Positions 1 through 38,133 of a stretch of 64,000 nt of DNA are shown one piece after another (position 1 is the stretch's first letter; every line of letters starts with the position of its first letter). Below the pieces are notes generated by a model. It was not told where the DNA came from, did no database searches, and was given only the letters and a program-made list of their open reading frames with translations. The position numbers and the translations under genes were made by a program. Source of the stretch: Escherichia phage vB_EcoM_IME392; the sequence record MH719082.1. The stretch is one strand, 5' to 3'.

Positions 1-931
1 TCACATCCAGAGTTGATCCTGGTTGGAACTCTCGACCAACATCTTCCATTACGTATTCTAGAATACTGTGATCGCTATTATAACGAGAAGCAGCATCTTC
101 AAGAGTAGCGATGTAATGCTGGAAGTAGGTACGGATCTTATACCAGGAATTAAGTGATCCGAGATCAATCGTAGTTACCGGAGCTTCATTAATGTCGTCA
201 ACATAAGCTCGGATATTACTTACCTGCTTCTTGATGTTCGACACTTCCGGATACCAGTGGAGATCATCCGTCATCACCACATAGTTGCCCATATCTACTT
301 TGAGCATAGTTGCGATGATTTCCTGGATGATCGTGAACTCCACCAGATTAACGTTAGTCAATCCCCAGATTAGATCATTACTACGGTTGAATACCGTGCA
401 GTCCAGACCACCATTACGGTACTTAAACGATAGAGCAATGTTGCAGATCATATCTGCGGTATTGATGCTGCCGATGCTGTTTACCAAACCTACATCAGAA
501 TCACGGCTGGGATCGTGAATAGTAGCCACGCACTTACGGTTACCCAGGTCAGAACGGAGGCGGTCTGTTACAGTCTGGAGTTGATCGTAGTTATACAGAC
601 GCTCACCGTAAGCACCACGCCAGGTAACCATATCATCGCTAAACATCTTAGCGCGAGGAACCATAATCGACATCCAGTTATCGATTGCATAGCCACCAGA
701 CAGTACCCACAATACTTCCCCCATAATTCCGAGGATATTGTCTTTACGTTCTGGATGAGCCATCCAACGATTAATCGGATTACTTAACTCAACTACAGCA
801 TGACCGATGGATACTACCGCCGAAGAGTTAACAGAAGTTCTGGACTTCTGCAACTCACCAGCCTTATCCATAGTATTGATGCTGTTAACCAGGATTTCAG
901 TATTACTGTTACCGCGAATTACCGAGATCAT
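1..931 (-). CDS. Thymidylate synthase-family enzyme (ThyA-like or dNMP hydroxymethylase-like); C-terminal part lies beyond the window edge
   Basis: Absent from the ORF track because no stop falls in the window. ATG at 931-929 overlaps the TGA of the upstream gene (ATGA). Minus-strand translation is open from 931 to position 1 (checked over ~270 nt: MISVIRGNSNTEILVNSINTMDKAGELQKSRTSVNSSAVVSIGHAVVELS...). TS-like blocks read: VTWRGAYGERLY, DPSRDSD, MICN (where ThyA has PCH), LDCTVFNRSNDLIWGLTNVNLVEF (cf. ThyA [22 protein letters not shown]), TDDLHWY (cf. GGDTHLY). Confidence 0.6.
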   Translation of the reverse strand, partial: MISVIRGNSNTEILVNSINTMDKAGELQKSRTSVNSSAVVSIGHAVVELSNPINRWMAHPERKDNILGIMGEVLWVLSGGYAIDNWMSIMVPRAKMFSDDMVTWRGAYGERLYNYDQLQTVTDRLRSDLGNRKCVATIHDPSRDSDVGLVNSIGSINTADMICNIALSFKYRNGGLDCTVFNRSNDLIWGLTNVNLVEFTIIQEIIATMLKVDMGNYVVMTDDLHWYPEVSNIKKQVSNIRAYVDDINEAPVTTIDLGSLNSWYKIRTYFQHYIATLEDAASRYNSDHSILEYVMEDVGREFQPGSTLDV

Positions 932-1650
932 TTAGAGTCCTTACGCACTGAATCAATAGACTTAACTGCAGAGGACAGTAACTCCAGACGGGCCTCCTGA
1001 GGGATCATACCAGATGGCTCATTCAGGATCATAATACCTTTACCAGTATTAGTAAAACGAGCTGTGATTGATCCAGGATACACCGGATGATTCAGAGTTA
1101 CAGAATTACACAACGCAGCACCGAATCGCTCCTCGTAGGCACGCATAGTTACCTTAAGGAGAGTAGAACTGACTGCTACAGAGTATTCCGGATCAACAAC
1201 ACGGAAGTTATTGTCCTCAATACTCTTATCCTTCGTATTGAAGAACAGAGTCATGTTATAATAATCAATAGACTCGTTACTGAGACGTAATGCCTCATCA
1301 CGAGCTTCCTGGCTAGCAAACATACTGTTATGCAGCAGGAAGTAAACGTACGAATCGAATACCGCACGATCACTGACGATCAACTCGCCACGATTGTAGG
1401 CATCCTTGAACATCTGAGTTCGCTGACGAATAAGACGCAGCTGGAACTCTACCGCTTCCATAGGATCTTCCACAGCTAAGCGCAGAATATCCATATGGGA
1501 TGTTACTCCCAGAGGAAGATGGTCACGAGTCTGTACTGCACGGAAGGTACATTCGGTTGATTCTTCCCAGCCTTTAGCCAGAGTAGATTTACCGGTACCC
1601 TGCGCACCAGACATAATTACACTGTAGCCTGGGATACTATAGTCTCTCAT
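928..1650 (-). CDS. P-loop kinase (dNMP kinase-like, or hydroxymethyl-pyrimidine DNA kinase-like)
   Basis: Walker A motif SGAQGTGKST near the N-terminus. Likely true start is the ATG at 1650 (MRDYSIPGYS...) preceded by GGAGAG; the ORF track extends to a TTG at 1662. Stop overlaps the start of the downstream TS-family gene. Confidence 0.5.
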   Translation of the reverse strand: MRDYSIPGYSVIMSGAQGTGKSTLAKGWEESTECTFRAVQTRDHLPLGVTSHMDILRLAVEDPMEAVEFQLRLIRQRTQMFKDAYNRGELIVSDRAVFDSYVYFLLHNSMFASQEARDEALRLSNESIDYYNMTLFFNTKDKSIEDNNFRVVDPEYSVAVSSTLLKVTMRAYEERFGAALCNSVTLNHPVYPGSITARFTNTGKGIMILNEPSGMIPQEARLELLSSAVKSIDSVRKDSK

Positions 1651-1682
1651 TATTCTCTCCAATTAAGAATCTTTCCCACATT

Positions 1683-1713
1683 TTAACAGCCTTTCAAGAC
1701 CCTAAAAGAGCGG
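1683..1713 (-). promoter_or_regulatory. Conserved bipartite intergenic motif, copy 1 (candidate promoter)
   Basis: Plus-strand TTAACAGCCTTTcaagaccctAAAAGAGCGG, about 33 nt upstream of the kinase start at 1650. On the minus strand it reads CCGCTCTTTT-N-AAAGGCTGTTAAAAT (TG-n-TAnnnT-like). Confidence 0.4.
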
Positions 1714-1739
1714 ACTAAAAAGGCTGGTGTAAATGTGAA

Positions 1740-2711
1740 CTAGCTAAACTTATACCAGCGAGGTCTCATACGGATCTCGTGATTCAGTTTATGTAGTTTC
1801 GAGAATTCGCAGAATGAGTTGGTGAACATCTGACGAGTATAGAACCGCTCATCCTCCGGCATGAAGTGGAACCATTTCTCCGGCTCCCATGCATACCCGA
1901 AATGAGCACATATCTCTTTGATGTTCTGATACCACCATTCCACGAACATCTGGTAGCCGCAAGGAGGGTTCTGGTCATTAAGCATGTACCATACCCCATC
2001 CTGCGTCCCGGGTCCACATACGATAGCATCGTTATCTGTGTACGCAGTCTCTTTAGAGTAGGACATAGTTGCCCAGCATTGATATGCCATGAACGGACCT
2101 AATCCAGATACCTGTAACAGATGCTCGATGGCCTCGGTAGCGAACGGAGACTTCCATGCCAGTAAGATAGGATCACTGTAGGTCTTCACCAGATAGGCTC
2201 TGGCAGCTACACTGTACTTAATATCCTCTGGACATACTTCATTAGCCATCTTAACTGCTGTGCTAAGGAAGTAGGCATTTGATTGCTGTGGAGCAGTGAA
2301 CGGAGGACCATCCTCATAACGACGTAGCTCTTCACGACCCATGTTATGTATGTCGTCATAGCTCATCTCATAAAGAGGAAGGACTCTGCGGAAGCGATCC
2401 ATATATGAATCACCACGGTTTATCATCTGGAAGAGTACCACGTTAAGCGCCTTACTCTCCCAGCTTAGGGAATCGTTCTCCAGAATGTTCTTGATAGCCC
2501 ATACTGTTTCACGATCGTGCTTACGGAACACGTTAGTGAATTTAAACTTACTAATCCACTTATGTTCTGTCCACGGAGGAGGTAGCTTAAGTATCTCCTT
2601 CTTATAATAAACCTCAGTCCGCTCGCGGTTATACTCCACATACTCACGTAGCTCCTCGGGATTTATCATCCCGAGTAACCCGTCGAAGTGCAAACCTAAC
2701 GGTTTAGACAT
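1740..2711 (-). CDS. Hypothetical protein, Trp/Cys-rich, in the putative DNA-modification module
   Basis: 323-aa ORF with canonical ATG (2711-2709) overlapping the stop of the upstream gene (TAATG). No motif I can name with confidence. Confidence 0.5.
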   Translation of the reverse strand: MSKPLGLHFDGLLGMINPEELREYVEYNRERTEVYYKKEILKLPPPWTEHKWISKFKFTNVFRKHDRETVWAIKNILENDSLSWESKALNVVLFQMINRGDSYMDRFRRVLPLYEMSYDDIHNMGREELRRYEDGPPFTAPQQSNAYFLSTAVKMANEVCPEDIKYSVAARAYLVKTYSDPILLAWKSPFATEAIEHLLQVSGLGPFMAYQCWATMSYSKETAYTDNDAIVCGPGTQDGVWYMLNDQNPPCGYQMFVEWWYQNIKEICAHFGYAWEPEKWFHFMPEDERFYTRQMFTNSFCEFSKLHKLNHEIRMRPRWYKFS

Positions 2712-3790
2712 TAAAGAATACCTTCTTTGGTAAAGTAGTCTATTACTTCATCCTGAAGTTCTTGTGCGTAATCCTTGCGCAGATATAGATTCTCATACTG
2801 ATGTTTCAGCAGAGCATCACGATCTTTCAGTTTCTCTGCAATCTCCGCATTACTGGAGACGATCAGAGGAGCCAGTAGCTCTTCGGGGACGCCGCTCCGG
2901 ATTATTGTTCCAGCAGCATCTTTATCCACCAGCATCAGAGTACCAGAGCTCAGGTATTCGTAATAACGGTTAGGTGGGCTGGTATAGAACGAATTACTGG
3001 AGTTCCAGTCTTCGATAAGCAGTACCGCTGCATATTTAGCCACTTCATCCAGCATCTCTGACAGCTTAAACTTAGGCAGCCAGTTAATCGGAGCAGCAGG
3101 TCCCAGCCACTTACGTTCTTTAGGATCCAGCTCTTCCCAGTTTTCCTGCTCGTAGCCGTCAAATCCTGCAAGACCACCAGTATGTTTAGCGATGGACATC
3201 TGAGCTTTGTAGCTCGGCACCGACATAAACAGTTCCAGACCATCTTGCTGGGAGAAGTACTGAGTGAACTTATGGAAGCGGCCTTCACGAGCAGCACCGT
3301 AATACAGCAGGCTATTGTCCGGCTTATCTGACGATCCATAGCGAGGCTTACGACCAGGAACGTAGGTAAGACGGTTCCAGTTAATGTGATGATAGTTCTC
3401 TTCGCTAGGAGAATACTGATTACCCCAGGAAGTACGTTCAAATGCTGCTACAACTTTAAATACAGTAGCTGCGGTGATGTGTCTCCACTGCGGACCCTGG
3501 ATACGCATCTTAGACGAGTAATCCTGTCCAATCCAGTAGAACTTAGCTCCGACATCTGCCTGGTCTACCCAGAACTTATACATCTCGTCGCGGAACTTAC
3601 AGAAGGTAGGAACACCATTGATGGCGATAATCACGTCATATTTAGTGCCATCTTCCATAGCCTTAACGAACTTAGGAGTATCGTCCAACAGGTCAGCTTG
3701 AAGTCCGTAGGCTAACCAGGAAGCCAGAGTATTACTGGCAATGATGGATTTATCGCTGCATGGCGAAAAGTTAGTTACTGCAATCTTCAT
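2711..3790 (-). CDS. Glycosyltransferase resembling phage DNA beta-glucosyltransferase (T4 BGT-like, GT-B fold)
   Basis: 359 aa. N-terminus MKIAVTNFS..., YDVIIAINGVPTF, LLYYGAAREGR and AAVLLIEDWNSSNSF...TLMLVD line up with my recollection of T4 beta-glucosyltransferase (MKIAIINMG..., IYGGSFRSGQR, IAALIIGDKNYNDNF...AVMLID). GGAGAAA RBS before ATG 3790. Confidence 0.5.
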   Translation of the reverse strand: MKIAVTNFSPCSDKSIIASNTLASWLAYGLQADLLDDTPKFVKAMEDGTKYDVIIAINGVPTFCKFRDEMYKFWVDQADVGAKFYWIGQDYSSKMRIQGPQWRHITAATVFKVVAAFERTSWGNQYSPSEENYHHINWNRLTYVPGRKPRYGSSDKPDNSLLYYGAAREGRFHKFTQYFSQQDGLELFMSVPSYKAQMSIAKHTGGLAGFDGYEQENWEELDPKERKWLGPAAPINWLPKFKLSEMLDEVAKYAAVLLIEDWNSSNSFYTSPPNRYYEYLSSGTLMLVDKDAAGTIIRSGVPEELLAPLIVSSNAEIAEKLKDRDALLKHQYENLYLRKDYAQELQDEVIDYFTKEGIL

Positions 3791-3817
3791 GTTTAATTTC
3801 TCCGTAGGCTGTCACAA

Positions 3818-3850
3818 TTTAACAGCCTTTTAGCTCATCAAAGAAGCGAG
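3818..3850 (-). promoter_or_regulatory. Conserved bipartite intergenic motif, copy 2
   Basis: TTTAACAGCCTTTTagctcatcAAAGAAGCGAG, about 30 nt upstream of ATG 3790; the stop codon of gene 3838..4872 lies inside the spacer. Confidence 0.4.
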
Positions 3851-4872
3851 TTAGCTGATGCCCAGCTCAGCCAGTTATCGTTGAGATCGGTCAGGTAGGA
3901 GTAATCCTTATTCAGACCGAATACAGTACGGTTAGTTCCGTCGAACTTCATTATACCAGCGCCAGGAGCTCTGATGATTGCATCTTCCGTAGCCAGACAA
4001 TATTCTTTCAAGTATTCCTGGATGTTGGGACGAATACGACGGAAGGAACTATCTGCCGAGTCATAGTGGAACATATCTGCGCAGTGCCACTGTACGTAGG
4101 ATTTATCCGGACGGCTGAGTAGTTCATTACGGGTAACCATATCTTTAGGAGAATATCCCAGCTTAGCTACAGTGACTTCGTGAATACCTCCACCATTAGA
4201 CGAAGTATCCATCAGCCAGTTTTCGTCCCAGTAGAACGAAGTACCAGTACCAGTTACCTGTCCAACCTTCCAGCCCATCGCCATACCTTTAAACAACAGG
4301 TAGCAATCTTCTCCTACGGTCAACTGTTGGAAGGTTATATCGAACAGCCAGAACATCTTCTCACTGGTCTTGACCATGATACCGAGGTCAGTGGCCGGAG
4401 CAGTGTTATTATGTGACTGACGATCGCATAGTTCAACAATCTTGTAGTTACGATTCTTGAAGCTACGGACGAACGCCATCTCAAACTCAGATCCCTCGAA
4501 GTCTATAACGGAACGGTCCAGATGGAAAATATTATCTGCGAACCAGACATCATCATCCACGAAGTAGCAGATGTCTGGACACCAGTTCTGATCCTCCATT
4601 AAAATCCATGCCTTATCAAGAGCATGAGCTCGGATTCTTCCGATTACCGGATTATCGTACTTAGGACGATGCCAGAAATTAAACTGCTCGTCCCCACCGA
4701 ACTGCTCTTCCAGAACTGCCTTATCTTCTTCGGAGGCATCCTGCATAAAGTAGAAGAAACGATACTCGATAGAGTCGTCAGTCTTCTTAGCATCTTTGAA
4801 CGACTGAATCTGACGGAGTACCGACTTCATACGATGATAGGTTGGGATGATAAAAGCCACTTTGGTAGTCAT
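3838..4872 (-). CDS. GT-A-type glycosyltransferase (family-2-like, DxD motif)
   Basis: 344 aa. N-terminal VAFIIPTYHR (cf. GT2 IIPTYNR) and DxD-like YFVDDDVWF. Confidence 0.5.
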   Translation of the reverse strand: MTTKVAFIIPTYHRMKSVLRQIQSFKDAKKTDDSIEYRFFYFMQDASEEDKAVLEEQFGGDEQFNFWHRPKYDNPVIGRIRAHALDKAWILMEDQNWCPDICYFVDDDVWFADNIFHLDRSVIDFEGSEFEMAFVRSFKNRNYKIVELCDRQSHNNTAPATDLGIMVKTSEKMFWLFDITFQQLTVGEDCYLLFKGMAMGWKVGQVTGTGTSFYWDENWLMDTSSNGGGIHEVTVAKLGYSPKDMVTRNELLSRPDKSYVQWHCADMFHYDSADSSFRRIRPNIQEYLKEYCLATEDAIIRAPGAGIMKFDGTNRTVFGLNKDYSYLTDLNDNWLSWASANSLL

Positions 4873-4878
4873 ATTTAT

Positions 4879-5490
4879 TTATCCAATTTGACGAACTAAG
4901 CGAAACCCTTCGGCGTACGGCCACTGGGCAGAATATCCACGTAAGGTGGCTAGAGCTAAGATACTCTGGGTATCTCGGTCTGACTTAATCTGGGAGTCGA
5001 ATCGTCCCATAGCCTGGCACTTACACTCAATATCGTCCTTATTCAGACGCTCGAAGTAATTAGGTTCCATCTGACCGAACTGGGTCAGGGACTCGGCATA
5101 CTCATATTCCAGGATAAGCCAGTTATACGCTCGGAGAGCTACACGAGCAGCATGATTAACTAGTTGATGGTCCTGGTGTAGGCTACTGAACGGAATATAG
5201 ACTACATCCGGCCTGATTTTAGCAACATAGTCCGCAATATCCTTAGCCAATTGCGGAATATCCTTCTGAGTCATACCATCGCCTGTGGAGGCATCGTTAC
5301 GCTCCAGGCAATGTACTTCTTTGATATTCGGATAGACACCGAATGCTGCTTCGGCTTCACCACGACGGGTCTCGTCCGGAGCAGTTACTTCGAGGATGAA
5401 AAATTGGTCGTCGCGGAATTTGCTCATAATACCTCCGCAACCCAGAATCTCATCATCGTGATGTGGGCTGATAATCAATCGTGACTTCAT
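4879..5490 (-). CDS. PIG-L/LmbE-family zinc-dependent de-N-acetylase
   Basis: 203 aa. Signature LIISPHHDDEILGCGG (PIG-L HPDDE motif) and downstream HQDHQ. GAGGA RBS before ATG 5490. Confidence 0.7.
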   Translation of the reverse strand: MKSRLIISPHHDDEILGCGGIMSKFRDDQFFILEVTAPDETRRGEAEAAFGVYPNIKEVHCLERNDASTGDGMTQKDIPQLAKDIADYVAKIRPDVVYIPFSSLHQDHQLVNHAARVALRAYNWLILEYEYAESLTQFGQMEPNYFERLNKDDIECKCQAMGRFDSQIKSDRDTQSILALATLRGYSAQWPYAEGFRLVRQIG

Positions 5491-5505
5491 TATTAATCCT
5501 CGCTA

Positions 5506-5541
5506 CACAAAAATGGGGTTAGGCCGTAGAGACCTAACCCC
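5506..5541 (-). terminator. Rho-independent terminator-like hairpin between the BCCT and deacetylase genes
   Basis: Plus strand caaaaat-GGGGTTAGG-ccgtagaga-CCTAACCCC: 9-bp perfect stem, followed on the minus strand by a TTTTT run. Confidence 0.45.
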
Positions 5542-5555
5542 GTACGCCTCTGACA

Positions 5556-5590
5556 CCTTAACAGCCTTTTAGGTCATCAAACAGGAGGAG
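5556..5590 (-). promoter_or_regulatory. Conserved bipartite intergenic motif, copy 3 (degenerate downstream block, overlaps the BCCT stop codon)
   Basis: CCTTAACAGCCTTTTaggtcatcAAACAGGAGGAG; the second block lies in the last codons of the BCCT gene. Confidence 0.3.
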
Positions 5591-6959
5591 TTTCCTTAGC
5601 CAAGAATACTTTAGGTACAAAGATCTTGAGGAACCCGAATAGAATACACAATACCCCAATCAGTACCGGAACAGCCGATACAGCTACCAGAGTCTTCGTT
5701 ACAGTTACTACGTCACCACCTGCCCAGTTAAGTGCAGCAGCAACTACACCCATGCTTACAATCCAGAATACACGAGTTCTAGGAGCGGTCATGGACTCTA
5801 CCGTAATACCTGCTGAGTCATGACCTGTAATAAAGAACAGAATCACAGACACGAGGGTAATTACTGAGAATATCCATCCGCCTGGGAAATTAGCCAGAAG
5901 CTGGAAGATATCCTGAGCACCATGTTGCAAACCGGCTACACCGAATACGGTAAACCATACGTTACTGATAATGGTAGGGAACAGTACACATCCCAGGATC
6001 AGTTCGCGAATAGTACGGCCGTAAGAGATACGTGCCACAAACGCTCCGACGAATAATGCCCAACCTACCCAGGCTGCATAGTAAGCATAAGGCCAGCTAG
6101 CCAGCCATTGCTTCTCTTCAGCAGTACTGCCAATGTTTACCGACATAGGAATAATCTGGAGCAGATAGCTGCCAGAATAGGTGATGGTCTTCCAGAGGTA
6201 TTCAAAGAATGTACCACTTACAGCAACGAATGCCATAATAGATAGAGCTACGATTACATTATATCTGGATAACCACTTAACCCCACGATCGACACCAGTT
6301 ACGGCACTAAGTACAGTGCCCAGAGTCAGGAGTGCGATAATGGTGTAAGGACCAACATCCACACCAAGGAACTCTTTAAATCCAGAACTGATCGGGCCTA
6401 CTGCGTAGACGAACGACAGGGTTAAGCCTATGATGGTCGAGAAGAGTAAGCTTATCGTATTAAGGTTATTCAGAGTTCGGGACTTGAATAACTGATTAAG
6501 CGGACGGTCTTCACCACGTACATGCAGTAAGTACCCGAATGCCACCCCTACGACTGCATACACAGCCCATGCATTAAGTCCCCAGTCAAAGAAGGTAGTT
6601 ACCATATTCTGACGTTCGGACATACCCTCCTGATGATGGTACATAGGTTCGAGTACGCCATAATAAATCATGGATACACCCATACCGGTACTAAACATCA
6701 TAGAGTAATAGGTAAAGCGATTGTATTTCGGAGTACCTTTACCCAGCTTAATGTTACCATGTTTGCTGAATACAAAGAATGCCAGGAACGCCAGGAAGAT
6801 CAGCGAAGACCAGGTAAATATGAATCCATACTGAGATATAAATACAGACTTACTCCAGTCCATTACAGCACCAAACTGGGTGGGAGCAAACATAATGGCG
6901 AGTACAATACCCACCGTTACCAGCACCGTCCCCCAGGTAACTACCTTTGAATCGGACAT
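5577..6959 (-). CDS. BCCT-family (betaine/carnitine/choline-type) secondary transporter, polytopic membrane protein
   Basis: 460 aa, about 12 hydrophobic segments. Carries the BCCT signature region WPYAYYAAWVGWALFVGAFVARISYGRTIRELILGCVLFPTIISNVWFTVFGVAG (cf. BetP/CaiT W-x-FYWAWW-x-W-x-PF-x-G-x-F-x-ARIS-x-GRTIRE) and FSTGMGVSMIYYGVLEP. GAGGAA RBS before ATG 6959. Confidence 0.8.
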   Translation of the reverse strand: MSDSKVVTWGTVLVTVGIVLAIMFAPTQFGAVMDWSKSVFISQYGFIFTWSSLIFLAFLAFFVFSKHGNIKLGKGTPKYNRFTYYSMMFSTGMGVSMIYYGVLEPMYHHQEGMSERQNMVTTFFDWGLNAWAVYAVVGVAFGYLLHVRGEDRPLNQLFKSRTLNNLNTISLLFSTIIGLTLSFVYAVGPISSGFKEFLGVDVGPYTIIALLTLGTVLSAVTGVDRGVKWLSRYNVIVALSIMAFVAVSGTFFEYLWKTITYSGSYLLQIIPMSVNIGSTAEEKQWLASWPYAYYAAWVGWALFVGAFVARISYGRTIRELILGCVLFPTIISNVWFTVFGVAGLQHGAQDIFQLLANFPGGWIFSVITLVSVILFFITGHDSAGITVESMTAPRTRVFWIVSMGVVAAALNWAGGDVVTVTKTLVAVSAVPVLIGVLCILFGFLKIFVPKVFLAKETPPV

Positions 6960-6962
6960 TGA

Positions 6963-7871
6963 TTATTCCTCAATTACGCCCTTAGCGATTAACTGGCGAC
7001 GGACGTATGCGTAGCCAGCAGGTGAAGTAGCGAGGACGATGTCCGCACTACGGAAGTTGGTTTCGATATAGAAGCACTCCTGAAGATCCCGAGTACAGAA
7101 GAGCTCAGTACTCATCATACCCTCGCGTACGTTACATGCATCTGCAACGAATTGCGCAACATCTTCGAAGTGGTCTACCGAATGACTATAGCCGAATCCA
7201 CGGGCATCAGTAGATATAACGTAGTTAGGGCAGTACGGAGTGAAGTCAGTATCTTCGTAGGATTTACCCTGGATAGTGAAGATATCTGCATAGTCCTTGA
7301 ACCCGCTCGGGCTAACCAGAAGATCCCAGGCAACTACCATACCATCGATAACATCTGCCTGAAGTACCAGAGAGGTAGTATATTCGTCCGGTGCCTTATC
7401 GCAGACCAAAATTGGGGAGTCTCCCAGAAGGTCCGACATAGTGCCCGCACCCTTGCCCCCGTGAACACGATCACGGCGTACAAACGCCTCCTGAGGCCTC
7501 TGGTACAGTCTGAACGACGGTACAATCAGCGAATCAGGCAGAGTTCCCAGGTTAGCTTCGGAGCGAAGGCAGGATAATTGGTCAGCTTTAGACCACGTAC
7601 TTTCGATAGCGTGCAGATCGTTACCGATTTTGGTATAGATATAGCTTTCCGGATTACGGCACTTACCCTGATTCAACTCTTCGATAACCGAGTCGAAATA
7701 AGGAAGTCGTACTGATCCCTCACGAGGAGCAGTTAACGCTACTGAGCCATGCTTGGTATGATCCTGATCAACTACCATAACCTGGTCCAGACTTACACCC
7801 ATCTTAAGAATCTGGGATAATGTAGCTGCCGTGTGATTAGTGCAGCCAATCATCAAATCTAACTTCTTCAT
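6963..7871 (-). CDS. Hypothetical protein (possible ligase/transferase; weak ATP-grasp-like E-x-N motif)
   Basis: 302 aa; contains HGGKGAGT and YIETNFRS. Assignment is tentative. GAGGAA RBS before ATG 7871. Confidence 0.4.
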   Translation of the reverse strand: MKKLDLMIGCTNHTAATLSQILKMGVSLDQVMVVDQDHTKHGSVALTAPREGSVRLPYFDSVIEELNQGKCRNPESYIYTKIGNDLHAIESTWSKADQLSCLRSEANLGTLPDSLIVPSFRLYQRPQEAFVRRDRVHGGKGAGTMSDLLGDSPILVCDKAPDEYTTSLVLQADVIDGMVVAWDLLVSPSGFKDYADIFTIQGKSYEDTDFTPYCPNYVISTDARGFGYSHSVDHFEDVAQFVADACNVREGMMSTELFCTRDLQECFYIETNFRSADIVLATSPAGYAYVRRQLIAKGVIEE

Positions 7872-7897
7872 TTTAATTCCTCAGTTAACTTGTACAA

Positions 7898-7928
7898 CCT
7901 AACAGCCTTTCGAACCCTAAAAAGAGCG
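7898..7928 (-). promoter_or_regulatory. Conserved bipartite intergenic motif, copy 4
   Basis: CCTAACAGCCTTTcgaaccctAAAAAGAGCG, about 30 nt upstream of ATG 7871. Confidence 0.4.
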
Positions 7929-7942
7929 AAATAATAGATATC

Positions 7943-7964
7943 TAGCCATCTCGTAAGATGGCTA
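7943..7964 (-). terminator. Hairpin directly downstream of the methyltransferase gene (possible terminator)
   Basis: TAGCCATCT-cgta-AGATGGCTA, 9-bp perfect stem; flanked by T/A-rich sequence but no clean U-run. Confidence 0.3.
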
Positions 7965-7972
7965 TGTATATA

Positions 7973-8713
7973 TTACTTTAATTCGGAGAGATCTGCGATC
8001 TTCACCTTAGCTGATACATCCCAGATTCCTTCACCAAATCCGGTATCTTCCAGCAGCTTAGGCACTTCACGTTTCTGTACCTTAGATTGCTCGTACTTAA
8101 GCAGAGGAATATTACCGGTCTTATCTGATTGATCCCACAGATAAGTAGCAGCACCGATGTTATCGAACAGTGCGAGATCTGGATTAAACTGGGTAAGGAG
8201 TCGGCAGTCCCAGTGAGACTTATGTTCCTCGAAAGGATTAGTTTCCGTGCCACGCTGACGATACTCATAGTTAGGAGTACCGATCACGATTTTAGCCTTA
8301 GACTGGAATAGCTTAGACAACACCATAAGCCCGTCTTCGCTATCCAGATGCTCCAACACATCCAGCCAGATAATAGTGCCGAATTTATCCAGCTCTTCAA
8401 TAGGAAGATCTTTCAACAGTTCAACGATATTGCAGATATAGATATCGCTATATACATTTACACTGCCTTTGATGTAGTCTTCGCAGATGTCCAGACCTGT
8501 AATCTGACCATCGAATCCTGCGTTACGGAGAGCAAGACCAATTTCTCCACGACCTAATCCCATATCCAGGATTGGCCCGGAGATAATTTCGTTACGGAGC
8601 ATCCATTGGAGAAAGTGCTTCTGGACTAAGTAGGAGGTGCCTCCGTTGCCCAGTGAAGCCTTCGTGACCTTAGTACCAGGAACGAAATTACACTCGATAT
8701 GTTTACCAAACAT
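7973..8713 (-). CDS. Class I SAM-dependent methyltransferase
   Basis: 246 aa. Motif I ILDMGLGRGEIG, acidic post-I ITGLDI, motif IIWLDVLEHL. GAGGA RBS before ATG 8713. Confidence 0.6.
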   Translation of the reverse strand: MFGKHIECNFVPGTKVTKASLGNGGTSYLVQKHFLQWMLRNEIISGPILDMGLGRGEIGLALRNAGFDGQITGLDICEDYIKGSVNVYSDIYICNIVELLKDLPIEELDKFGTIIWLDVLEHLDSEDGLMVLSKLFQSKAKIVIGTPNYEYRQRGTETNPFEEHKSHWDCRLLTQFNPDLALFDNIGAATYLWDQSDKTGNIPLLKYEQSKVQKREVPKLLEDTGFGEGIWDVSAKVKIADLSELK

Positions 8714-8783: not shown

Positions 8784-8811
8784 CAAAAATTAGGGTGGCC
8801 GAAGCCACCCT
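8784..8811 (-). terminator. Rho-independent terminator after the topoisomerase II medium-subunit gene
   Basis: AGGGTGGC-cgaa-GCCACCCT (8-bp GC-rich stem; UUCG loop on the minus transcript), immediately followed on the minus strand by TTTTT. Confidence 0.6.
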
Positions 8812-8817
8812 AGTTAG

Positions 8818-13373: not shown

Positions 13374-16139
13374 CTACTCTTCCATAAACGTAGTTACGTT
13401 ATTGGAAAGGTAGGCACCAATTTTAGTGTTATATCTCTGGAAGGTAGGAACATGGGTAACCAGGATGATGTGGTTAACCGGAATGTCCTGAAGAGCATCA
13501 ATAGCTACGTCCAGAGTATTTACGTCCAGATTTCGCAGAGACTCATCCAGAATCAGACATCCTGCTCCCTTACTGAGGCTAATCAGCTTACCGATGAACA
13601 GTACGTCCACCAGGTTCTGTTGGCCACCAGACAGATCAGCATACGGAATTAACAGATCTCCAACTTTGTATTGAACATCGAAGTCAATCTTGATAGCTCC
13701 GTTAGCCTGTTCACGAACAGTAGAAATTACCATATCTCCACCAGTCATCATAGCAGCTACTTCTTTGAAGATAGAAGCAGTTACATCGCCGCTATTAGTG
13801 AACAGGCTCTGATACTCAACCAGTTTCTGATACTTAGGCTGGAGAATAGCCAACTGCGCATTAGCATCGTCGAGTTTCTTCTGAGCCTCGTCCATACGAG
13901 TCTTCAGACTACGAAGAGTAGCCATAGCGCCGATGGTAGAGTTGATCTCGATTAGCTCCTGCTCCAGCTTAGCCACTTCCTCTTCGAGAACCTGCACGGA
14001 AGGATAGGACTTAGTCTTACTCTTAAGCACTTCCACGTCGCTATTAACGGTATGGATCTTCTGACGAAGAGTAGCCACATCGTTCAGCAGACCGGACTTA
14101 CGTCTTAGTTCGGCTAATTCACTATTCTTAACGTTAAGCTTCTCTCTGAGTTCATCAGACTTAGGAGCCTTACTGATCTCAGCCTCGACAGCATCCAGCT
14201 TAGTAACAGATGCAGATCCTTGGGTTTCGAGATCATCCATCTTAGCTCTGATAGACTTCTCTACTTCTTTAATGTCCTCTTCCTTAAGGGACTGCTTACA
14301 GGTTGGGCACGTAGTAGGGATGTTGCGCATCTCGGTCTCGAGCTTAGTTAACTCCTTCTCTAAGCGAGTTAACTCATTAGTCAGAGATTCACTCTGATTA
14401 TGCAGTGACCGGATGTTACCTTCTACTTCAGATACCTCGGCATCCAGAGTAGTGATTTCGTCCCGGACCTTAGCGAGAGCGGAGTTAACCTCCTCTTCGT
14501 TAAAGTCAATCTTGAACGCAGCCAGAGAATCTTCCAGCATCTGGAGACTCTGTAGCTTACTGTCCAGATTACCCAGCTCACGGATCTTCTGACGAATATC
14601 ATCAATCTGTGGCAGGATTCGAGACTTATCTTCTTCCAGATTACTCACGTCCTTAAGTTTGGAGAAGTCGTGATCCTCCATGGTCTTAAGGACTTCTTCC
14701 TGAGCAGTTACCTGGGTCTGATAGTTACTGATCTCTACCTTACAGTTCTTAGCCGAGGCCTTTGCGACAGCTTCGTACTGGTTAATTACGGTAAGACCGA
14801 GCATCTTCGTGATCAGGTTAATACGTTCGTTGAATCCGAACTGGCTCAAGAACGGAGGACTATTCTGGGAACGATACAGAAGATCGAAGTGTTCGAGGAA
14901 TGGCAACATCTCCCAGAGCTTAGCTTCACGCTCTCGGATACTACCACCATCCATCTCATCACCATCAATCCAGACTCGGAAAGTCTGACCACCAGCCCAA
15001 TGGCGACTGATCAGGAATTCACGACCACCATACTCTAGCATCACTTCTACCAGAAGATGGTCTTGACCGCGTCTCACCACGTTACGAGGACTGTCGCTAC
15101 CAGTTAAGCAGTAGTTAAGAGCTCTCAGCAACGAGGATTTACCGTTACCAGTTTCGCCGTAGAGATAAGTAAGACCTCGCTTAAAGTTAAGCTCCAGCTT
15201 ATCAATACTGCGGAAGTTCTCTACCTTAATACTATTCAAGGTAAAGTTAAGGTCGAAGACCGACTCGGAACGATCAACGTGGGTAGACATCTCATCATGG
15301 ATATCTTTAAGACCCTTTGCCCGAACGACTTTGTCGATTACTTCTTCAACATCGATAGATTTAACTGAGATGCGTGAAGCATCCATCATCTGAGCTCTTT
15401 CACGAACTACCAGATGAGGGTAATTATCCATACCGGCAGGTACTTCATCTTCCCAGTACATCTTGAGGTATTTGTAGGAGTCAGACTCTACCGGAACCCG
15501 CTGCCAGGAAAGATCTTTAAGATCCAGCAGCACCAAGCTACCGTCCTGACAGTCACCCATCCCGTGAGGAATAGGTACGTTAACCGAGTGGGTATGACCG
15601 ATGCTGATAGGACGATGGATGTCACCAGCAAATCCCAGCTCATACTTAGTATCGTCGAACTCCTGACCAAACATAGAGGACAGAGTAATGTGGCCAATAA
15701 GGACATCTACTTTATCTTCGATAAAACTGAAGTCCTGGGTAGGACGCCAGTCGCTAAAGGCGACCTTACGGCCACCTAAGTTCAGGATTTTACCATCGAC
15801 ATATTCTGCCTTACCAGCGAGGATCGGCACCAGTGAGTTCTGGTAGTGATCAGCATCTACTGATTTGGAGTTAATGTCGTGGTTACCCAGAATATAATAA
15901 ATCTCGGTAAACTGCTCACCGAGGATCTCCATAAACTGGGATGTAGCGTGTGCAATTTTAGGCTCATGCTGAGCCTTATGCACTAAGTCGCCAGCGATAG
16001 ACAGACAGGTTACTTTATGTTCCCTGCCCATCTCCGCCATACGATGAGCTAAACCGATAAACTGCTTTAAGCGAAACCCTTCCGAGTTATGCTGCTGAAA
16101 TTCATGGATATGAATATCAGCTACGATCAACATTTTCAT
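13374..16139 (-). CDS. Fused Mre11/SbcD-like nuclease and Rad50/SbcC-like ATPase (T4 gp47 plus gp46 equivalents in one polypeptide)
   Basis: 921 aa, one continuous ORF. N-terminal calcineurin-like phosphoesterase motifs (IVADIHIH, AGDLVHK, GNHD, GHTH); then Walker A YGETGNGKSS, long coiled-coil with a CPTC zinc-hook-like CxxC in the middle, ABC signature LSGGQQ, Walker B CLILDE and H-loop VTH at the C-terminus. Confidence 0.8.
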   Translation of the reverse strand: MKMLIVADIHIHEFQQHNSEGFRLKQFIGLAHRMAEMGREHKVTCLSIAGDLVHKAQHEPKIAHATSQFMEILGEQFTEIYYILGNHDINSKSVDADHYQNSLVPILAGKAEYVDGKILNLGGRKVAFSDWRPTQDFSFIEDKVDVLIGHITLSSMFGQEFDDTKYELGFAGDIHRPISIGHTHSVNVPIPHGMGDCQDGSLVLLDLKDLSWQRVPVESDSYKYLKMYWEDEVPAGMDNYPHLVVRERAQMMDASRISVKSIDVEEVIDKVVRAKGLKDIHDEMSTHVDRSESVFDLNFTLNSIKVENFRSIDKLELNFKRGLTYLYGETGNGKSSLLRALNYCLTGSDSPRNVVRRGQDHLLVEVMLEYGGREFLISRHWAGGQTFRVWIDGDEMDGGSIREREAKLWEMLPFLEHFDLLYRSQNSPPFLSQFGFNERINLITKMLGLTVINQYEAVAKASAKNCKVEISNYQTQVTAQEEVLKTMEDHDFSKLKDVSNLEEDKSRILPQIDDIRQKIRELGNLDSKLQSLQMLEDSLAAFKIDFNEEEVNSALAKVRDEITTLDAEVSEVEGNIRSLHNQSESLTNELTRLEKELTKLETEMRNIPTTCPTCKQSLKEEDIKEVEKSIRAKMDDLETQGSASVTKLDAVEAEISKAPKSDELREKLNVKNSELAELRRKSGLLNDVATLRQKIHTVNSDVEVLKSKTKSYPSVQVLEEEVAKLEQELIEINSTIGAMATLRSLKTRMDEAQKKLDDANAQLAILQPKYQKLVEYQSLFTNSGDVTASIFKEVAAMMTGGDMVISTVREQANGAIKIDFDVQYKVGDLLIPYADLSGGQQNLVDVLFIGKLISLSKGAGCLILDESLRNLDVNTLDVAIDALQDIPVNHIILVTHVPTFQRYNTKIGAYLSNNVTTFMEE

Positions 16140-16993
16140 GCCGACTCCAGTATCTTAGCCGTAACGGATCTGTTATATTTACCCAGTACACCATGGAAGT
16201 ACGGAGGGAATCTGAATCCTGGACAGAACTCTTCCAGAGTAGGTAGGATGCGCTGTTGCATCTGTACCTTAGACTCCTGTTCTTTAATGATGCTGTGGAC
16301 TTCTGTATCGGTTAGGATTCTGTCTAGACGCATCAGTTCCATATTAGAACGAATACGGAATTCAACCGATTGGCTTAAGCTACCATCTTTGTAGGCATTA
16401 ATCGCCTCCTTAACAGTGCTTAATCCAGTAGCCACTCCTGGAATGTTGTCGGAGCCGTCCCCGACGATGGCTTTGTAGATGAGATAATCCTTATGATCGT
16501 CCAGATCGTAGGTCTTCATTAACCAAGGAAGATCCACTAAACCATCGTCAGGATTTAAGACACAAGTATTCTCATTAATTGATAAGTACCAGTCACGGTC
16601 ACGAGAATGCAACATAACCGGACGTCCTGAATGAGCATAGTAGTAGCCTAAATCATCGGCTTCCACACCAGACACCTGGATACACTTAATACCCAATGCT
16701 GGGAAGATCTGCTCATGAAGTACATTCATAGCAGCCCACAATGCCTCAAAGCTCTCGTCATACTCACGATTAGCTTTATACTCCGGATTCTTATCTTTAG
16801 GCCTGTATCTCCACTTGCCTCGATCATATAGCATGATTAGCTCGGAGTTATATCCGTCTTCCTTAATCAACTTCGCTACACTACCAATAGTGGAGGAGAC
16901 CGTAGGACCTAAGTCCTGGGACTTACCGGCTGCGAACCAGTTACGAAGAGTCAGCCACTGACAATCGACTGGTATTAACGGGATGTCATTCAT
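16136..16993 (-). CDS. RNase H / 5'-3' flap endonuclease (FEN-family, T4 RNase H-like)
   Basis: 285 aa. Acidic-cluster motif GVEADDLGYYYA (cf. the EADD motif of 5' nucleases). ATGA start/stop overlap with the upstream gene. Confidence 0.55.
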   Translation of the reverse strand: MNDIPLIPVDCQWLTLRNWFAAGKSQDLGPTVSSTIGSVAKLIKEDGYNSELIMLYDRGKWRYRPKDKNPEYKANREYDESFEALWAAMNVLHEQIFPALGIKCIQVSGVEADDLGYYYAHSGRPVMLHSRDRDWYLSINENTCVLNPDDGLVDLPWLMKTYDLDDHKDYLIYKAIVGDGSDNIPGVATGLSTVKEAINAYKDGSLSQSVEFRIRSNMELMRLDRILTDTEVHSIIKEQESKVQMQQRILPTLEEFCPGFRFPPYFHGVLGKYNRSVTAKILESA

Positions 16994-36559: not shown

Positions 36560-37276
36560 ATGTATAAGGTAACTAATAAGTCCGAGTACACTGTTCAAGC
36601 TAACCTATCCGCAGACGGTCCGGTAAGCATCGCTCCTAAAGAGAGTCTGACCATTCGTAACCCGTCTCGCGATTTCGTTAAAGAGATCGGTCGCGTATCT
36701 AACCTGCTTTCCTATACGGAAGTAAGTGGTGATGCGTCTGGTGATCAGACCGATAAAGACGAAGTGGTCGTAGCTGAGCCAGAACATCCGAACTCGCTGG
36801 ACAAAGAGCCAGGTACTGTTATTCAGGGTACTGCTCTGACCAAAGAAGAAATTAACACTGCTGCTGAGCGCTCTGATCATAAGATCAATGACAAAGTGCC
36901 CGACACTGCGGTAGTTGGCGCTAACCAGGATGCTGCTGCACCTAAAACTGGTGGCGAGTCTAACGTCGCTCCTAAAGAAGTGACTGACGCAGAATTAAAT
37001 AACGCTGGCGCTGGCGCTGCTGCCGGTGGTGAAGATCAGGGTACTGGTAATGCGGAAGATGCTTCTGCAGATAAATCCGACTCTGGCATCCGTCAGTTTA
37101 CCGGTGAAGAACCTACCAAATCTGAAGATGACGGCGAAGGTGAGCAGTACACTCGCGAAGAGCTGGAATCTACTCACTGGGCTACCGTTAAGAGCATCGC
37201 GGAATCTAACGGTATTGACTACACCAACAAAGGTGAAGCGATCACCGCTATTCTGGATGCTAAAGTAACCAAGTAA
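36560..37276 (+). CDS. Acidic head-associated protein (possible decoration or outer capsid protein)
   Basis: 238 aa, RBS AAAGAGGTAG. High-expression codon usage like the capsid gene; Ala/Gly/Asp/Glu-rich central region. Confidence 0.4.
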   Translation: MYKVTNKSEYTVQANLSADGPVSIAPKESLTIRNPSRDFVKEIGRVSNLLSYTEVSGDASGDQTDKDEVVVAEPEHPNSLDKEPGTVIQGTALTKEEINTAAERSDHKINDKVPDTAVVGANQDAAAPKTGGESNVAPKEVTDAELNNAGAGAAAGGEDQGTGNAEDASADKSDSGIRQFTGEEPTKSEDDGEGEQYTREELESTHWATVKSIAESNGIDYTNKGEAITAILDAKVTK

Positions 37277-37309
37277 TAGCTAAAATTCAACGAGCCTACG
37301 GAGCATAGT

Positions 37310-37846
37310 ATGGATATTCGCAGTTTAGTTCTCCAGGGAACAGATACTCTCAGGAAGAATCAATATCCTACTGGTAAAGTAGGCTCGTTCGATTTTAACT
37401 ATGTTATGAGAAATAAACAGCTCATCGTTAAATCTCAGGCACGCCCTTCCAGTGGTGAATCGTATTCGGCATATCAGTCCCAGATTGTATTCTCTGGAGT
37501 AGGTTATTCTGATGTTCCGTCTCCTGATTTCCCTCTGACGTACAATTCTCCTAACGGGAAGATTTATCTTCAGAAGCCTACCACTCGGAATACTGTCCAG
37601 ATCAGATGTTCTTGTAAGGACGATTATTTCATGTGGCAGTACCCTAATAAGTCTAAGGGTGCTCTCCTGGGTAGATTTAAGCCGTATGTACGTAAAACAA
37701 CGGATCGTCCTCCTAGAAACCCAGGCAACGTACCAGGAATGTGTAAACATGCTCTGGCTCTCGTGAAGAATCTGTTTTCTATGGGAGTTCTCCAGCCTGA
37801 TTCTCAGGTACAAGAGTACTTATCAAGACCAACTAGGAGTATATAA
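37310..37846 (+). CDS. Hypothetical virion protein
   Basis: 178-aa ORF in the head/neck module. Confidence 0.45.
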   Translation: MDIRSLVLQGTDTLRKNQYPTGKVGSFDFNYVMRNKQLIVKSQARPSSGESYSAYQSQIVFSGVGYSDVPSPDFPLTYNSPNGKIYLQKPTTRNTVQIRCSCKDDYFMWQYPNKSKGALLGRFKPYVRKTTDRPPRNPGNVPGMCKHALALVKNLFSMGVLQPDSQVQEYLSRPTRSI

Positions 37847-38133
37847 TGGTAACTGCAGCAGAAGTTCTTTCGTCTGTTGACGAAGCCACTTATACGATCA
37901 AGCGCATCAAACAGATTCGTGACGGTCGTCTGGTGATTCGTCAGAAGCGTCAGTACGCTGGTCCGGCACCTAAGCCAGGATTTAAGCGTAATCCTCAGAC
38001 TGGCAACATCGAGAAGATGACAGCTACTGAGCACCGTAAGCGTTCTAAAGCTGTCCGTAAGGTACAGCGTAAGGCCACGGTTAAGCTGAAACGCGCTAAA
38101 TCAATTCGTCGCAGAGAGGCTATGGGGTTATGA
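37846..38133 (+). CDS. Small highly basic protein
   Basis: 95 aa; C-terminal half is Lys/Arg-rich (HRKRSKAVRKVQRKATVKLKRAKSIRRRE). Confidence 0.45.
   Translation: MVTAAEVLSSVDEATYTIKRIKQIRDGRLVIRQKRQYAGPAPKPGFKRNPQTGNIEKMTATEHRKRSKAVRKVQRKATVKLKRAKSIRRREAMGL

Follow-up and report, generated by a model that had tools for sequence, protein, structure and literature searches.

A candidate thymidine hypermodification module combining a beta-glucosyltransferase-like enzyme with a sugar deacetylase in Escherichia phage vB_EcoM_IME392

We analyzed a window of 64,000 nucleotides from Escherichia phage vB_EcoM_IME392 (sequence record MH719082.1; hereafter IME392), and in particular the nine genes at its left end (positions 1-8713), which an earlier sequence-only reading had proposed to be a DNA hypermodification module. 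All nine open reading frames lie on the minus strand, as that reading had stated. In the order of transcription they encode a putative methyltransferase (MTase), an orphan 302-amino-acid (aa) protein, a BCCT-family transporter, a PIG-L-family deacetylase, two predicted glycosyltransferases (GTs) of 344 and 359 aa, a 323-aa protein, a P-loop kinase, and a homologue of thymidylate synthase (TS); the genes are tightly packed, and the start of the TS gene overlaps the stop codon of the kinase gene. We consider it reasonably probable that together they constitute a thymidine hypermodification module of a lytic myophage of the SP-15/RP13-like type, in which the logic of the T-even phages has been moved to uracil; a role in DNA modification in the wider sense is well supported. 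At the level of family, structure, and synteny, the TS signature, the fold of the 359-aa enzyme, which resembles T4 beta-glucosyltransferase (BGT), the PIG-L motifs, the BCCT and HMUDK_hel assignments, the gene order, and the linkage are established.

The favored pathway would begin when the dCTP deaminase and dUTPase of the phage provide dUMP, which the TS homologue would convert to 5-hydroxymethyl-dUMP (5-hmdUMP). The kinase would phosphorylate this product toward the triphosphate, and the phage PolA, which is reported to be fused to a uracil-DNA glycosylase (UDG), would insert 5-hydroxymethyl-deoxyuridine (5-hmdU) instead of T, while a nucleotidase of the HD/YfbR-like type presumably depletes dTMP. 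After replication, the BGT-like GT-B enzyme would move a sugar from a nucleotide sugar onto the hydroxymethyl group of 5-hmdU in DNA. The 344-aa GT-A enzyme, and probably also a DxD glycosyltransferase encoded at 24.3 kb, would add more sugars, including one or more N-acetyl-hexosamines, from which the PIG-L enzyme would strip the acetyl group, exposing a cationic amine. The 302-aa protein, possibly an ATP-grasp ligase, may then attach a compound that the BCCT transporter brings in, possibly to the freed amine, and the S-adenosylmethionine (SAM)-dependent MTase may add a methyl group to the glycan. The 323-aa HMUDK_hel protein would be a conserved accessory of 5-hmdU-modifying phages, for which base flipping or target selection would be a guess. 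In this scheme we infer the order of the steps, which sugars are added and how they are linked, the substrate of the kinase, and the roles of the 302-aa protein and the BCCT transporter, the MTase, and HMUDK_hel. The earlier proposal that the module makes a hydroxymethyl-pyrimidine and glycosylates it draws support from the TS signatures, the BGT-like enzyme, the setting among genes for replication and nucleotide metabolism, and the published phage group to which IME392 belongs.

The gene for the TS homologue (931..1, minus strand) has 310 of its 357 codons inside the window, with the C-terminal ~47 residues past the edge. The protein matches Pfam Thymidylat_synt (3e-12) and phrog_3676 (1e-70), and its closest relatives by tblastn are enzymes of the Ackermannviridae (ViI-like phages; 42-44% identity), followed by those of the PaMx11/M6-like phages, the "deoxyuridylate hydroxymethyltransferase" of PhiW-14, and enzymes of SPO1-like Bacillus phages. 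At the position of "LAPCH" in ThyA it carries "DMICN", an ICN context common to the whole ViI clade. In an alignment that included E. coli ThyA and T4 gp42 (A5), the catalytic-site equivalents Cys163 (Cys146), R183, S184, and D186 (R166, S167, and D169) are invariant, and the Asn of "GLTNVN" is aligned with E. coli N177, where T4 gp42 has Asp. Asp160 lies three residues before Cys163, at the position of E. coli Leu143, as it does in T4 gp42, ViI, PaMx11, and RP13; this residue was matched by its offset from the Cys, the L143 segment having been gapped by MAFFT. Among the diagnostic positions of the family, Asn177 specifies dUMP and Asp dCMP, Asn169 marks a 5-hydroxylase, and an acidic residue at 143 lets water reach the methylene intermediate (PMC13326640). 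The TS homologue is thus predicted to be a dUMP hydroxymethylase making 5-hmdUMP. A dCMP hydroxymethylase was rejected on the grounds that residue 177 is Asn and not Asp, and a 5-hydroxypyrimidine synthase on the grounds that Asp169 is kept. The earlier reading of this protein as a TS-fold hydroxymethylase, with ICN in place of the PCH of ThyA, is therefore supported by Pfam and by the alignment with ThyA and gp42; its hydroxymethyl-pyrimidine can now be specified, through Asn177, as one of uracil and not cytosine. The DNA modifications of ViI, M6, PaMx11, and PhiW-14 are reported to be derived from 5-hmdU (PMC8989533).

The second line of evidence comes from the 359-aa protein (2711..3790, minus). 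Its sequence alone gave little: T4 BGT was not found from it by phmmer or tblastn, Pfam yielded only a weak match to Glyco_trans_1_2, and tblastn against 50,697 phage records returned EP_H11 only, even at E 10. An exhaustive HMMER search of 1.84e9 representative proteins recovered 289 homologues, and the profile of this family matched T4 BGT by hhalign (92.5%, E 4.9e-7) over 282 columns, i.e., full length. An AlphaFold 2 (AF2) model built from 137 sequences (pLDDT 91.1, pTM 0.90) showed a GT-B fold of two Rossmann domains; in a Foldseek search of the PDB, T4 BGT took ranks 1-4 (E 1.5e-12 to 8e-11, TM 0.64-0.69), well ahead of GtfC, T4 alpha-glucosyltransferase (AGT), and BshA, with other GTs about four orders of magnitude behind, and the top seven included T4 AGT bound to DNA containing hydroxymethyluracil. 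Residues D90, R168, R275, and E278 are aligned with BGT D100, R191, R269, and E272 and are invariant or nearly so in the 137 homologues. We take BGT D100 to be catalytic (entry 1nzd is D100A) and R191, R269, and E272 to bind UDP.

Identity between the 359-aa protein and T4 BGT is only ~14-19%, and because their kinship is visible only at the level of profile and structure, the 359-aa proteins form a separate family with the same fold and type of mechanism. Distant members of this family are encoded directly after ParB_N, or ParB_N and Tet_JBP, in phage contigs (L021 8585-10948; L019 9392-10921), a neighborhood in which phage GT-B enzymes glycosylate 5-hydroxymethylcytosine in DNA (bioRxiv 10.1101/2023.12.21.572611); these neighbors tie the family to TET-associated DNA glycosylation clusters. 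We predict that the 359-aa protein is a DNA glycosyltransferase acting on 5-hmdU. The suggestion that it is a T4 BGT-like GT-B enzyme was confirmed by both the profile comparison and the structure search.

The third component is the 203-aa PIG-L/LmbE-family zinc de-N-acetylase (4879..5490, minus), which matches Pfam PIG-L at 6.7e-14 (52.9 bits against a cut-off of 28.2) and has both zinc motifs intact, PHHDDE at residues 9-14 and HQDH at 105-108; it also has a weak match to the NCBIfam model TIGR04001 (BshB1; 1.3e-5). The original assignment to this family holds, and its corollary, that an N-acetyl-hexosamine may be deacetylated, is probable: the enzyme is predicted to convert a residue of the N-acetylglucosamine type to a free amine. 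The neighboring 344-aa protein (3838..4872, minus) has no Pfam or PHROG match. Compared with the PDB, its profile gave a weak match to SpsA (E 0.018, residues 3-120), and a wider profile gave weak matches, over the N-terminus only, to sll0501, the 5tze glycosyl transferase, DPMS, ArnC, and PglI (E 0.09-1.2); the invariant residues of the family include D106-D108 (DDD) and G187-E188-D189. It is probably, on weak support, a GT-A glycosyltransferase of the GT2-like type. Of the original description as a GT-A DxD enzyme, the invariant DDD speaks in favor, while the GT2 matches reach only E 0.02-1 and Pfam is silent. For the 359-, 344-, and 302-aa proteins alike, searches with single sequences or small profiles (PDB sequences, Pfam, PHROGs, NCBIfam) gave nothing significant, and a word-indexed protein search with the three families found close relatives only.

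A further GT32-like glycosyltransferase (24349..25140, minus), 15 kb from the module, has a DAD motif at residues 99-101 and a Gly_transf_sug match of 5.5e-4, which is below the gathering score. Its homologues are encoded directly after the topoisomerase II (topo II) genes in the metagenomic contigs L003, L013, and L017, and directly upstream of the pair of 302-like and BCCT genes in L014. The earlier inclusion of this distant DxD enzyme is thus supported, because its homologues sit inside the module in relatives, even if the family match itself stays below threshold.

The clustering of the module genes is far above chance, since the same genes occur in the same order in EP_H11 and in four more groups of metagenomic contigs. 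EP_H11, an Escherichia phage, is the sole close relative in the phage database (93% identity), and nearly all of its module genes are annotated "hypothetical". In the five lineages formed by the window with EP_H11 and the four contig groups, among which the identity of the BGT-like protein falls to 32%, the order PIG-L, GT-A, BGT-like is kept in every case, the GT-A gene following immediately downstream of PIG-L throughout; kinase and TS come next in every contig that reaches that far. HMUDK_hel is present in the window and EP_H11, L003, and L017, and is absent between the BGT-like gene and the kinase gene in L018. The block is flanked by PolA, helicase, HD, and TS genes on one side and by the topo II genes on the other. 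PolA (1093-1095 aa), encoded outside the window, adjoins the module in L003 and EP_H11, and the HD/YfbR-like nucleotidase gene neighbors it just beyond the window; the dCTP deaminase and dUTPase genes of the phage are elsewhere in the genome.

Two strong terminator-like hairpins on the minus strand, one at the boundary between the topo II genes and the module (8791..8812; a 9-bp GC-rich stem, then a T run) and one at the boundary between the BCCT and PIG-L genes (5515..5541; an 11-bp stem with seven GC pairs, then ATTTTTGT), divide the module into an MTase-302-BCCT unit and a PIG-L-to-TS unit. This division matches the evolutionary one, in which the first unit is a variable cassette and the second a conserved core. 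The variable cassettes adjoin the topoisomerase genes and differ among relatives: (i) the 302 and BCCT genes occur in IME392/EP_H11, L003/L013, and L014; (ii) a gene like that for phosphatidylserine (PS) decarboxylase, of the pyruvoyl type, occurs with an ATP-grasp gene, and often with a CxxCxxCC protein gene, in L003/L013, L017, and L018 (L003 1956-5860, L017 3831-7962, L018 1684-3909) and is absent from IME392/EP_H11; (iii) the MTase gene is found only in IME392/EP_H11 and L017 (orthologue at E 3e-80) and is absent from L003/L013; and (iv) an extra paralogue of the 344-aa GT-A is found in L003/L013 and L017. The family content of the second cassette suggests that an amino acid is ligated and then decarboxylated. 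The related Acinetobacter phage Ab1-TPeters carries yet another cassette at the corresponding position downstream of topo II (L022 11704-16832), in which two genes are annotated as glycosyltransferases; what it has in common with the window is limited to the TS, kinase, and HD genes, and it is without HMUDK_hel or a BGT-like gene. Ralstonia phage RP13, of which 50 kb were inspected, shares only TS, kinase, HD, and HMUDK_hel, and none of the GT, PIG-L, or BCCT genes. Within ~8 kb of its HMUDK_hel gene (ORF120), RP13 (L006) encodes a WbqC-family protein (24836-25558) and a myo-inositol-1-phosphate synthase (36879-38159), which may be relevant to the DNA modification of that phage.

The variable cassette of IME392 contains the genes whose functions are most open to interpretation. 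The 460-aa transporter (5577..6959, minus), which has the BCCT core only, is assigned to its family with confidence, as had been proposed (Pfam 1e-92, 311.6 bits, residues 7-446 covering profile positions 1-481 of 485); the NCBIfam models for betaine, choline, and carnitine transporters all scored far below their cut-offs, e.g., 244 against 650. Its neighbor, the 302-aa protein (6963..7871, minus), belongs to a family with only four clusters among 5.8e9 proteins and has no Pfam, PHROG, or PDB sequence match; no relatives of it, or of the kinase, were found in scans of IMG/VR viral contigs. The two genes are also neighbors in L014, in which identity to the 302-aa protein is down to ~37-39%, and because adjacency survives at this distance we regard the two proteins, from gene context, as a functional pair. 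Conserved motifs of the 302-aa family are a Gly-rich loop, VRRDRVHGGKGAG (131-143), and E256...E270-x-N272. Foldseek matches of its AF2 model were all non-significant, and many were ATP-grasp enzymes (RizA at E 0.019, CPS, TTL, PsnB, and Ddl); hhalign comparisons with E. coli DdlB and with an ATP-grasp-like 286-aa protein of L003 were negative. The protein is possibly an ATP-grasp-type ligase that partners the BCCT transporter; of the earlier remark on a weak ATP-grasp-like motif, the motifs and the enrichment among non-significant structural matches stand, against the negative DdlB comparison.

The 246-aa MTase (7973..8713, minus) matches Methyltransf_25 (4.4e-5) and related Pfam families below the gathering score, and UbiG at 1.4e-5. 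These matches agree with the SAM methyltransferase named at the outset, the best Pfam value remaining under threshold, and give weak support to a class I accessory enzyme of the small-molecule type, outside the DNA MTase families. A specific version of the cassette's chemistry would have the BCCT transporter import an extracellular zwitterionic or quaternary-ammonium solute and the 302-aa protein ligate it to the amine freed by PIG-L on a sugar bound to 5-hydroxymethyluracil, giving a permanently cationic, aminoglycosylated "base J-like" replacement for thymidine; we hold this version to be quite doubtful. Vibrio phage 1.031.O (153 kb; L011 11917-13822) encodes a BCCT-like protein (25% identity) directly upstream of a gene of the LicD family of phosphocholine transferases. 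Phosphocholine chemistry, prompted by this pair, was rejected for IME392, which has no LicA-, LicC-, or LicD-like genes here. Other BCCT matches labelled as phage (Listeria, Staphylococcus, "Acinetobacter phage MD-2021a", and a Salmonella Infantis record) are, judging from record size and annotation, mostly apparent bacterial contigs.

The 323-aa protein (1740..2711, minus), which had been left unnamed, proved to be HMUDK_hel (Pfam PF18723, 3.2e-35, 122 bits against a cut-off of 25; residues 22-312 covering profile positions 5-277 of 281), and thereby ties the cluster to known thymidine hypermodification systems. HMUDK_hel, formerly named aGPT-Pplase clade 1, has a predicted DNA-glycosylase-like helical fold. 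By tblastn it found 371 phage records, mainly Ackermannviridae, one of them annotated aGPT-Pplase clade 1; the RP13 protein is 32% identical, and PaMx11 gp50, itself PF18723 at 6e-41, is homologous. The family is a marker of thymidine-hypermodifying phages (PMC5889632); the characterized transferases belong to the sister family PF18724 and not to PF18723 (PMC8989533).

Beside HMUDK_hel in the window, EP_H11, L003, and L017 is the gene for the 244-aa P-loop kinase (928..1662, minus; Walker A GAQGTGKS), whose assignment bears on the strongest alternative to the pathway described above. In that alternative, kinase-dependent substitution of the Lee/Weigele type, the kinase and HMUDK_hel would form a split 5-hmdU DNA kinase (5-HMUDK) producing 5-phosphomethyl-dU in DNA; the phosphate would be displaced by a BCCT-imported nucleophile (a choline- or ethanolamine-like alcohol or amine) or by a sugar, or kept as a phosphodiester bridge, and the GTs, PIG-L, and MTase would then decorate the adduct. 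The gene arrangement recalls such systems: SP10 gp186 is a kinase fused to a HMUDK_hel domain (PMC5889632), and PaMx11 gp49-gp50-gp51-gp52 (kinase, HMUDK_hel, TS, HD) is mirrored here. No other small P-loop kinase is encoded anywhere in the EP_H11 genome, and by hhalign the family of this kinase scored 63% against the 5-HMUDKs ViI gp67 and PaMx11 gp49, compared with <7% against three phage dNMP kinases. Phosphate is part of the modification in each of SP-15, YerA41, and Carin-5, the PS-decarboxylase-like gene of relatives recalls the Ser-to-ethanolamine step of ViI, and in Vibrio phage 1.031.O the BCCT-like gene adjoins one of a phosphocholine-transferase family.

Against this, the hhalign match is essentially confined to the P-loop region and poor beyond it; the kinase has no match to the 5-HMUDK family PF18748 even at E 10, nor to ViI gp67 or PaMx11 gp49 by BLAST or phmmer; and neither the window nor the entire genome of EP_H11 contains a homologue of PF18748 or of the amino-acid:DNA transferase family PF18724. 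The protein matches AAA_28 (2e-9), has weak dNK and Thymidylate_kin Pfam matches, and carries a dNK-like "SDR..DSY" motif. Moreover, its gene adjoins the TS gene in the window and EP_H11, L003, L018, and Ab1-TPeters, the last two without HMUDK_hel, yet with the kinase-TS pair kept; in RP13 the kinase homologue is beside the HD nucleotidase gene, 18 kb from HMUDK_hel. HMUDK_hel-type paralogues were also dispensable for the reconstituted M6 reactions (PMC8989533). We therefore downgraded an identification of the kinase as a recognizable 5-HMUDK, which its HMUDK_hel neighbor and the 63% value had prompted. Because it has no 5-HMUDK family match, aligns over the P-loop only, and keeps its place beside TS in relatives lacking HMUDK_hel, the kinase probably acts at the nucleotide level, on 5-hmdUMP, and would correspond to gp1 of T4; alternatively, it would be a divergent 5-hmdU DNA kinase. 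The P-loop kinase of the first description thus stands at the level of AAA_28, with none of the matches sought among 5-hmdU DNA kinases, and we judge the substitution route as a whole to be unlikely, although it is the main rival.

IME392 and EP_H11 have been listed in two 2025 papers with the phages that have a UDG-fused family A polymerase, near SP-15, YerA41, RP13, and Carin-5, and their T-modification was inferred there from the TS homologue, the dCTP deaminase, and "aGPT-Pplase", no 5-HMUDK being found (PMC12686479; bioRxiv 10.1101/2025.03.26.645540). SP-15 DNA contains dihydroxypentyl-uracil with glucose and phosphoglucuronate; the modifications of YerA41 and Carin-5 comprise a linker, phosphate, and several sugars, with a T-linked glycan of hexose and HexNAc in Carin-5, whose genome has a block of GT and deacetylase genes near the polymerase gene (PMC12686479). 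These phages suggest a second alternative, in which the TS homologue or other gene products would build a C5 alkyl-diol linker of the dihydroxypentyl-uracil type at the nucleotide level, and the GTs and kinase would add sugars and phosphate to the hydroxyls of that linker. The shared polymerase clade, the block near the polymerase gene as in Carin-5, and the presence of a kinase all fit. However, the TS homologue is nearest to the enzymes of phages with plain 5-hmdU, the module showed no enzymes that might build a five-carbon linker, RP13 (in the 50 kb inspected) and Ab1-TPeters share no GT, PIG-L, or BCCT genes with the window, and the 359-aa GT family, judging from its Tet_JBP neighbors, appears also to work with hydroxymethyl groups made by TET enzymes, so that we regard this alternative as improbable.

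That the block instead makes or remodels a small molecule or a glycan of the host envelope (a bacillithiol- or mycothiol-like glucosamine conjugate, or a lipopolysaccharide or O-antigen), with TS and kinase as ordinary genes of nucleotide metabolism and incidental neighbors, has in its favor the mycothiol/bacillithiol logic of a GT, PIG-L, and ligase, the BshA match in Foldseek (6e-7) and weak BshB1 match, and the normally osmoprotective function of BCCT transporters, but we give it hardly any credence, with T4 BGT about five orders of magnitude ahead of BshA, the GT family linked to TET/JBP and ParB DNA-modification clusters, the block placed amid replication genes and joined to TS-kinase in five lineages, module proteins without any match to Gtr-type or other families that modify envelope glycans (Pfam, PHROGs), and a TS homologue that is not canonical ThyA. 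The sequence-only reading had also ranked surface-glycan modification lower, and we found nothing in its support.

Returning to glycosylation of 5-hmdU by the BGT-like enzyme, several observations weigh against it. HMUDK_hel has no part in that pathway, and all characterized systems have it together with a DNA kinase and an amino-acid:DNA transferase. In SP-15, YerA41, and Carin-5 the modification contains a carbon linker of 88-104 Da and phosphate, not a sugar placed directly on hydroxymethyluracil, and the same might be true of this phage. The EP_H11 and IME392 genomes are complete in GenBank, whereas YerA41, RP13, and Carin-5 resisted standard sequencing, so that the modification in the former may be lighter or partial. 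The BCCT gene might be auxiliary and unconnected with the module; its tryptophan box appears atypical relative to that of BetP. The AF2 model of the 302-aa protein is poor (pLDDT 39.8, from five sequences), and the GT-A, ATP-grasp-like, and MTase assignments are weak. Finally, searches of the literature on EP_H11 and IME392 turned up no work on the chemistry of their DNA.

Among known systems, the T4 pathway to 5-hydroxymethylcytosine (gp42, gp1, BGT) is the closest in plan: both combine a TS-family hydroxymethylase, an adjacent kinase, and a BGT-fold DNA GT, and b-gt is directly beside gene 42 in T4. They differ in the base (cytosine there, uracil here, from Asn177), in the 359-aa GT, which does not match the BGT Pfam family, in the kinase, which is unrelated to the phage dNMP kinases compared, and in the GT-A, DxD GT, PIG-L, transporter, ligase-like protein, and MTase that are extra here. 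With ViI, M6, PaMx11, PhiW-14, and SP10 (Lee et al. 2018, 2021), the module shares a dUMP hydroxymethylase of the same clade and an HMUDK_hel paralogue, with PaMx11 gp49-52 also the local order including the HD nucleotidase, and with these pathways the modular, combinatorial tailoring cassettes ending in a cationic group. In contrast to those pathways, it has no PF18748 kinase, PF18724 transferase, PLP decarboxylase, radical SAM enzyme, or flavin enzyme, and has glycosyltransferases and a sugar deacetylase instead.

The phages SP-15, YerA41, Carin-5, and RP13 resemble IME392 in polymerase clade, TS homologue, and dCTP deaminase. Their differences lie in the 88/104-Da linker and phosphate of the first three, of which we found no sign here; in the deacetylase, annotated as the polysaccharide-deacetylase type in Carin-5 and PIG-L here; and in RP13 (region examined), as well as Ab1-TPeters, where no homologues of the 359, 344, PIG-L, BCCT, and 302 genes were found. 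The GT-B enzymes associated with phage TET/JBP (Burke et al. 2021; bioRxiv 10.1101/2023.12.21.572611) have a BGT-like fold, distant relatives of the 359-aa protein lie beside Tet_JBP/ParB_N, and the glycans that their clusters place on hydroxymethylpyrimidines in DNA range from mono- to trisaccharides and include HexNAc. There, however, a dioxygenase acts on DNA, mostly on 5-methylcytosine, whereas here a TS homologue would act at the nucleotide level and on uracil; moreover, we found no mention of a deacetylase or glucosamine in the text of bioRxiv 10.1101/2023.12.21.572611.

If the BGT-like enzyme inverts with UDP-glucose, the first product would equal base J of kinetoplastids (beta-D-glucosyl-hydroxymethyluracil), although there JBP hydroxylates T in DNA and a GT-A enzyme, JGT, follows, neither enzyme type being used here. 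Pathways to mycothiol, bacillithiol, and the GPI anchor likewise encode together a GT, a PIG-L deacetylase, and a possible ATP-dependent ligase, but the likeness is one of reaction logic only, with no orthology, and DNA is the predicted acceptor here.

Clusters of TS-linked GT genes have been noted in metagenome mining (bioRxiv 10.1101/2023.12.21.572611), and the phage group itself was already suspected of T-modification; the new elements here are the deacetylase, the pairing of a transporter with an enzyme, and cassettes that can be swapped. We found no description of the module's composition in the literature, so the earlier statement that this gene combination is not a characterized pathway holds for the module, with the reservation that EP_H11 and IME392 had been flagged in print as probably T-modified and that TS-GT clusters are known.

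Hypermodified thymidines shield phage DNA from restriction enzymes and CRISPR and block standard sequencing, and the enzymes that make them supply tools for the labelling and construction of modified DNA. To our knowledge, glycosylated hydroxymethyluracil is so far represented by kinetoplastid base J and the partly solved modifications of SP-15, YerA41, and Carin-5. The present module is compact, comes from easily grown E. coli phages (IME392, EP_H11), and unites a BGT-like DNA GT and a sugar deacetylase with a transporter and candidate ligases. If the proposed pathway is correct, it would show how DNA can acquire glycans that are cationic or contain amino sugars, and would represent a new viral use of external metabolites, and the cassettes of its relatives (302 with BCCT, PS-decarboxylase with ATP-grasp, MTase) would yield a natural series of related products. 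It could also help to give a function to HMUDK_hel, which is widespread in T-hypermodifying phages. Should the solute-ligation version prove true, this would be the first DNA modification pathway with a virus-encoded transporter and the first de-N-acetylation on a DNA-bound glycan.

Elsewhere in the window, a 921-aa protein (13374-16139, minus strand) is a fusion of an Mre11-like calcineurin phosphoesterase domain and an ATPase of the Rad50/SbcC type that has a zinc-hook match, and near its gene are those for a 5'-3' exonuclease (16136-16993), RusA (19421-19870), and a helicase (21139-22779). The ~2.3 kb at 25140-27520, amid early genes, are poor in open reading frames; we looked there for tandem repeats and found none, and the segment contains two tRNA genes on the minus strand, tRNA-Met (CAT) at 26105-26180 and tRNA-Arg (TCT) at 26650-26725.

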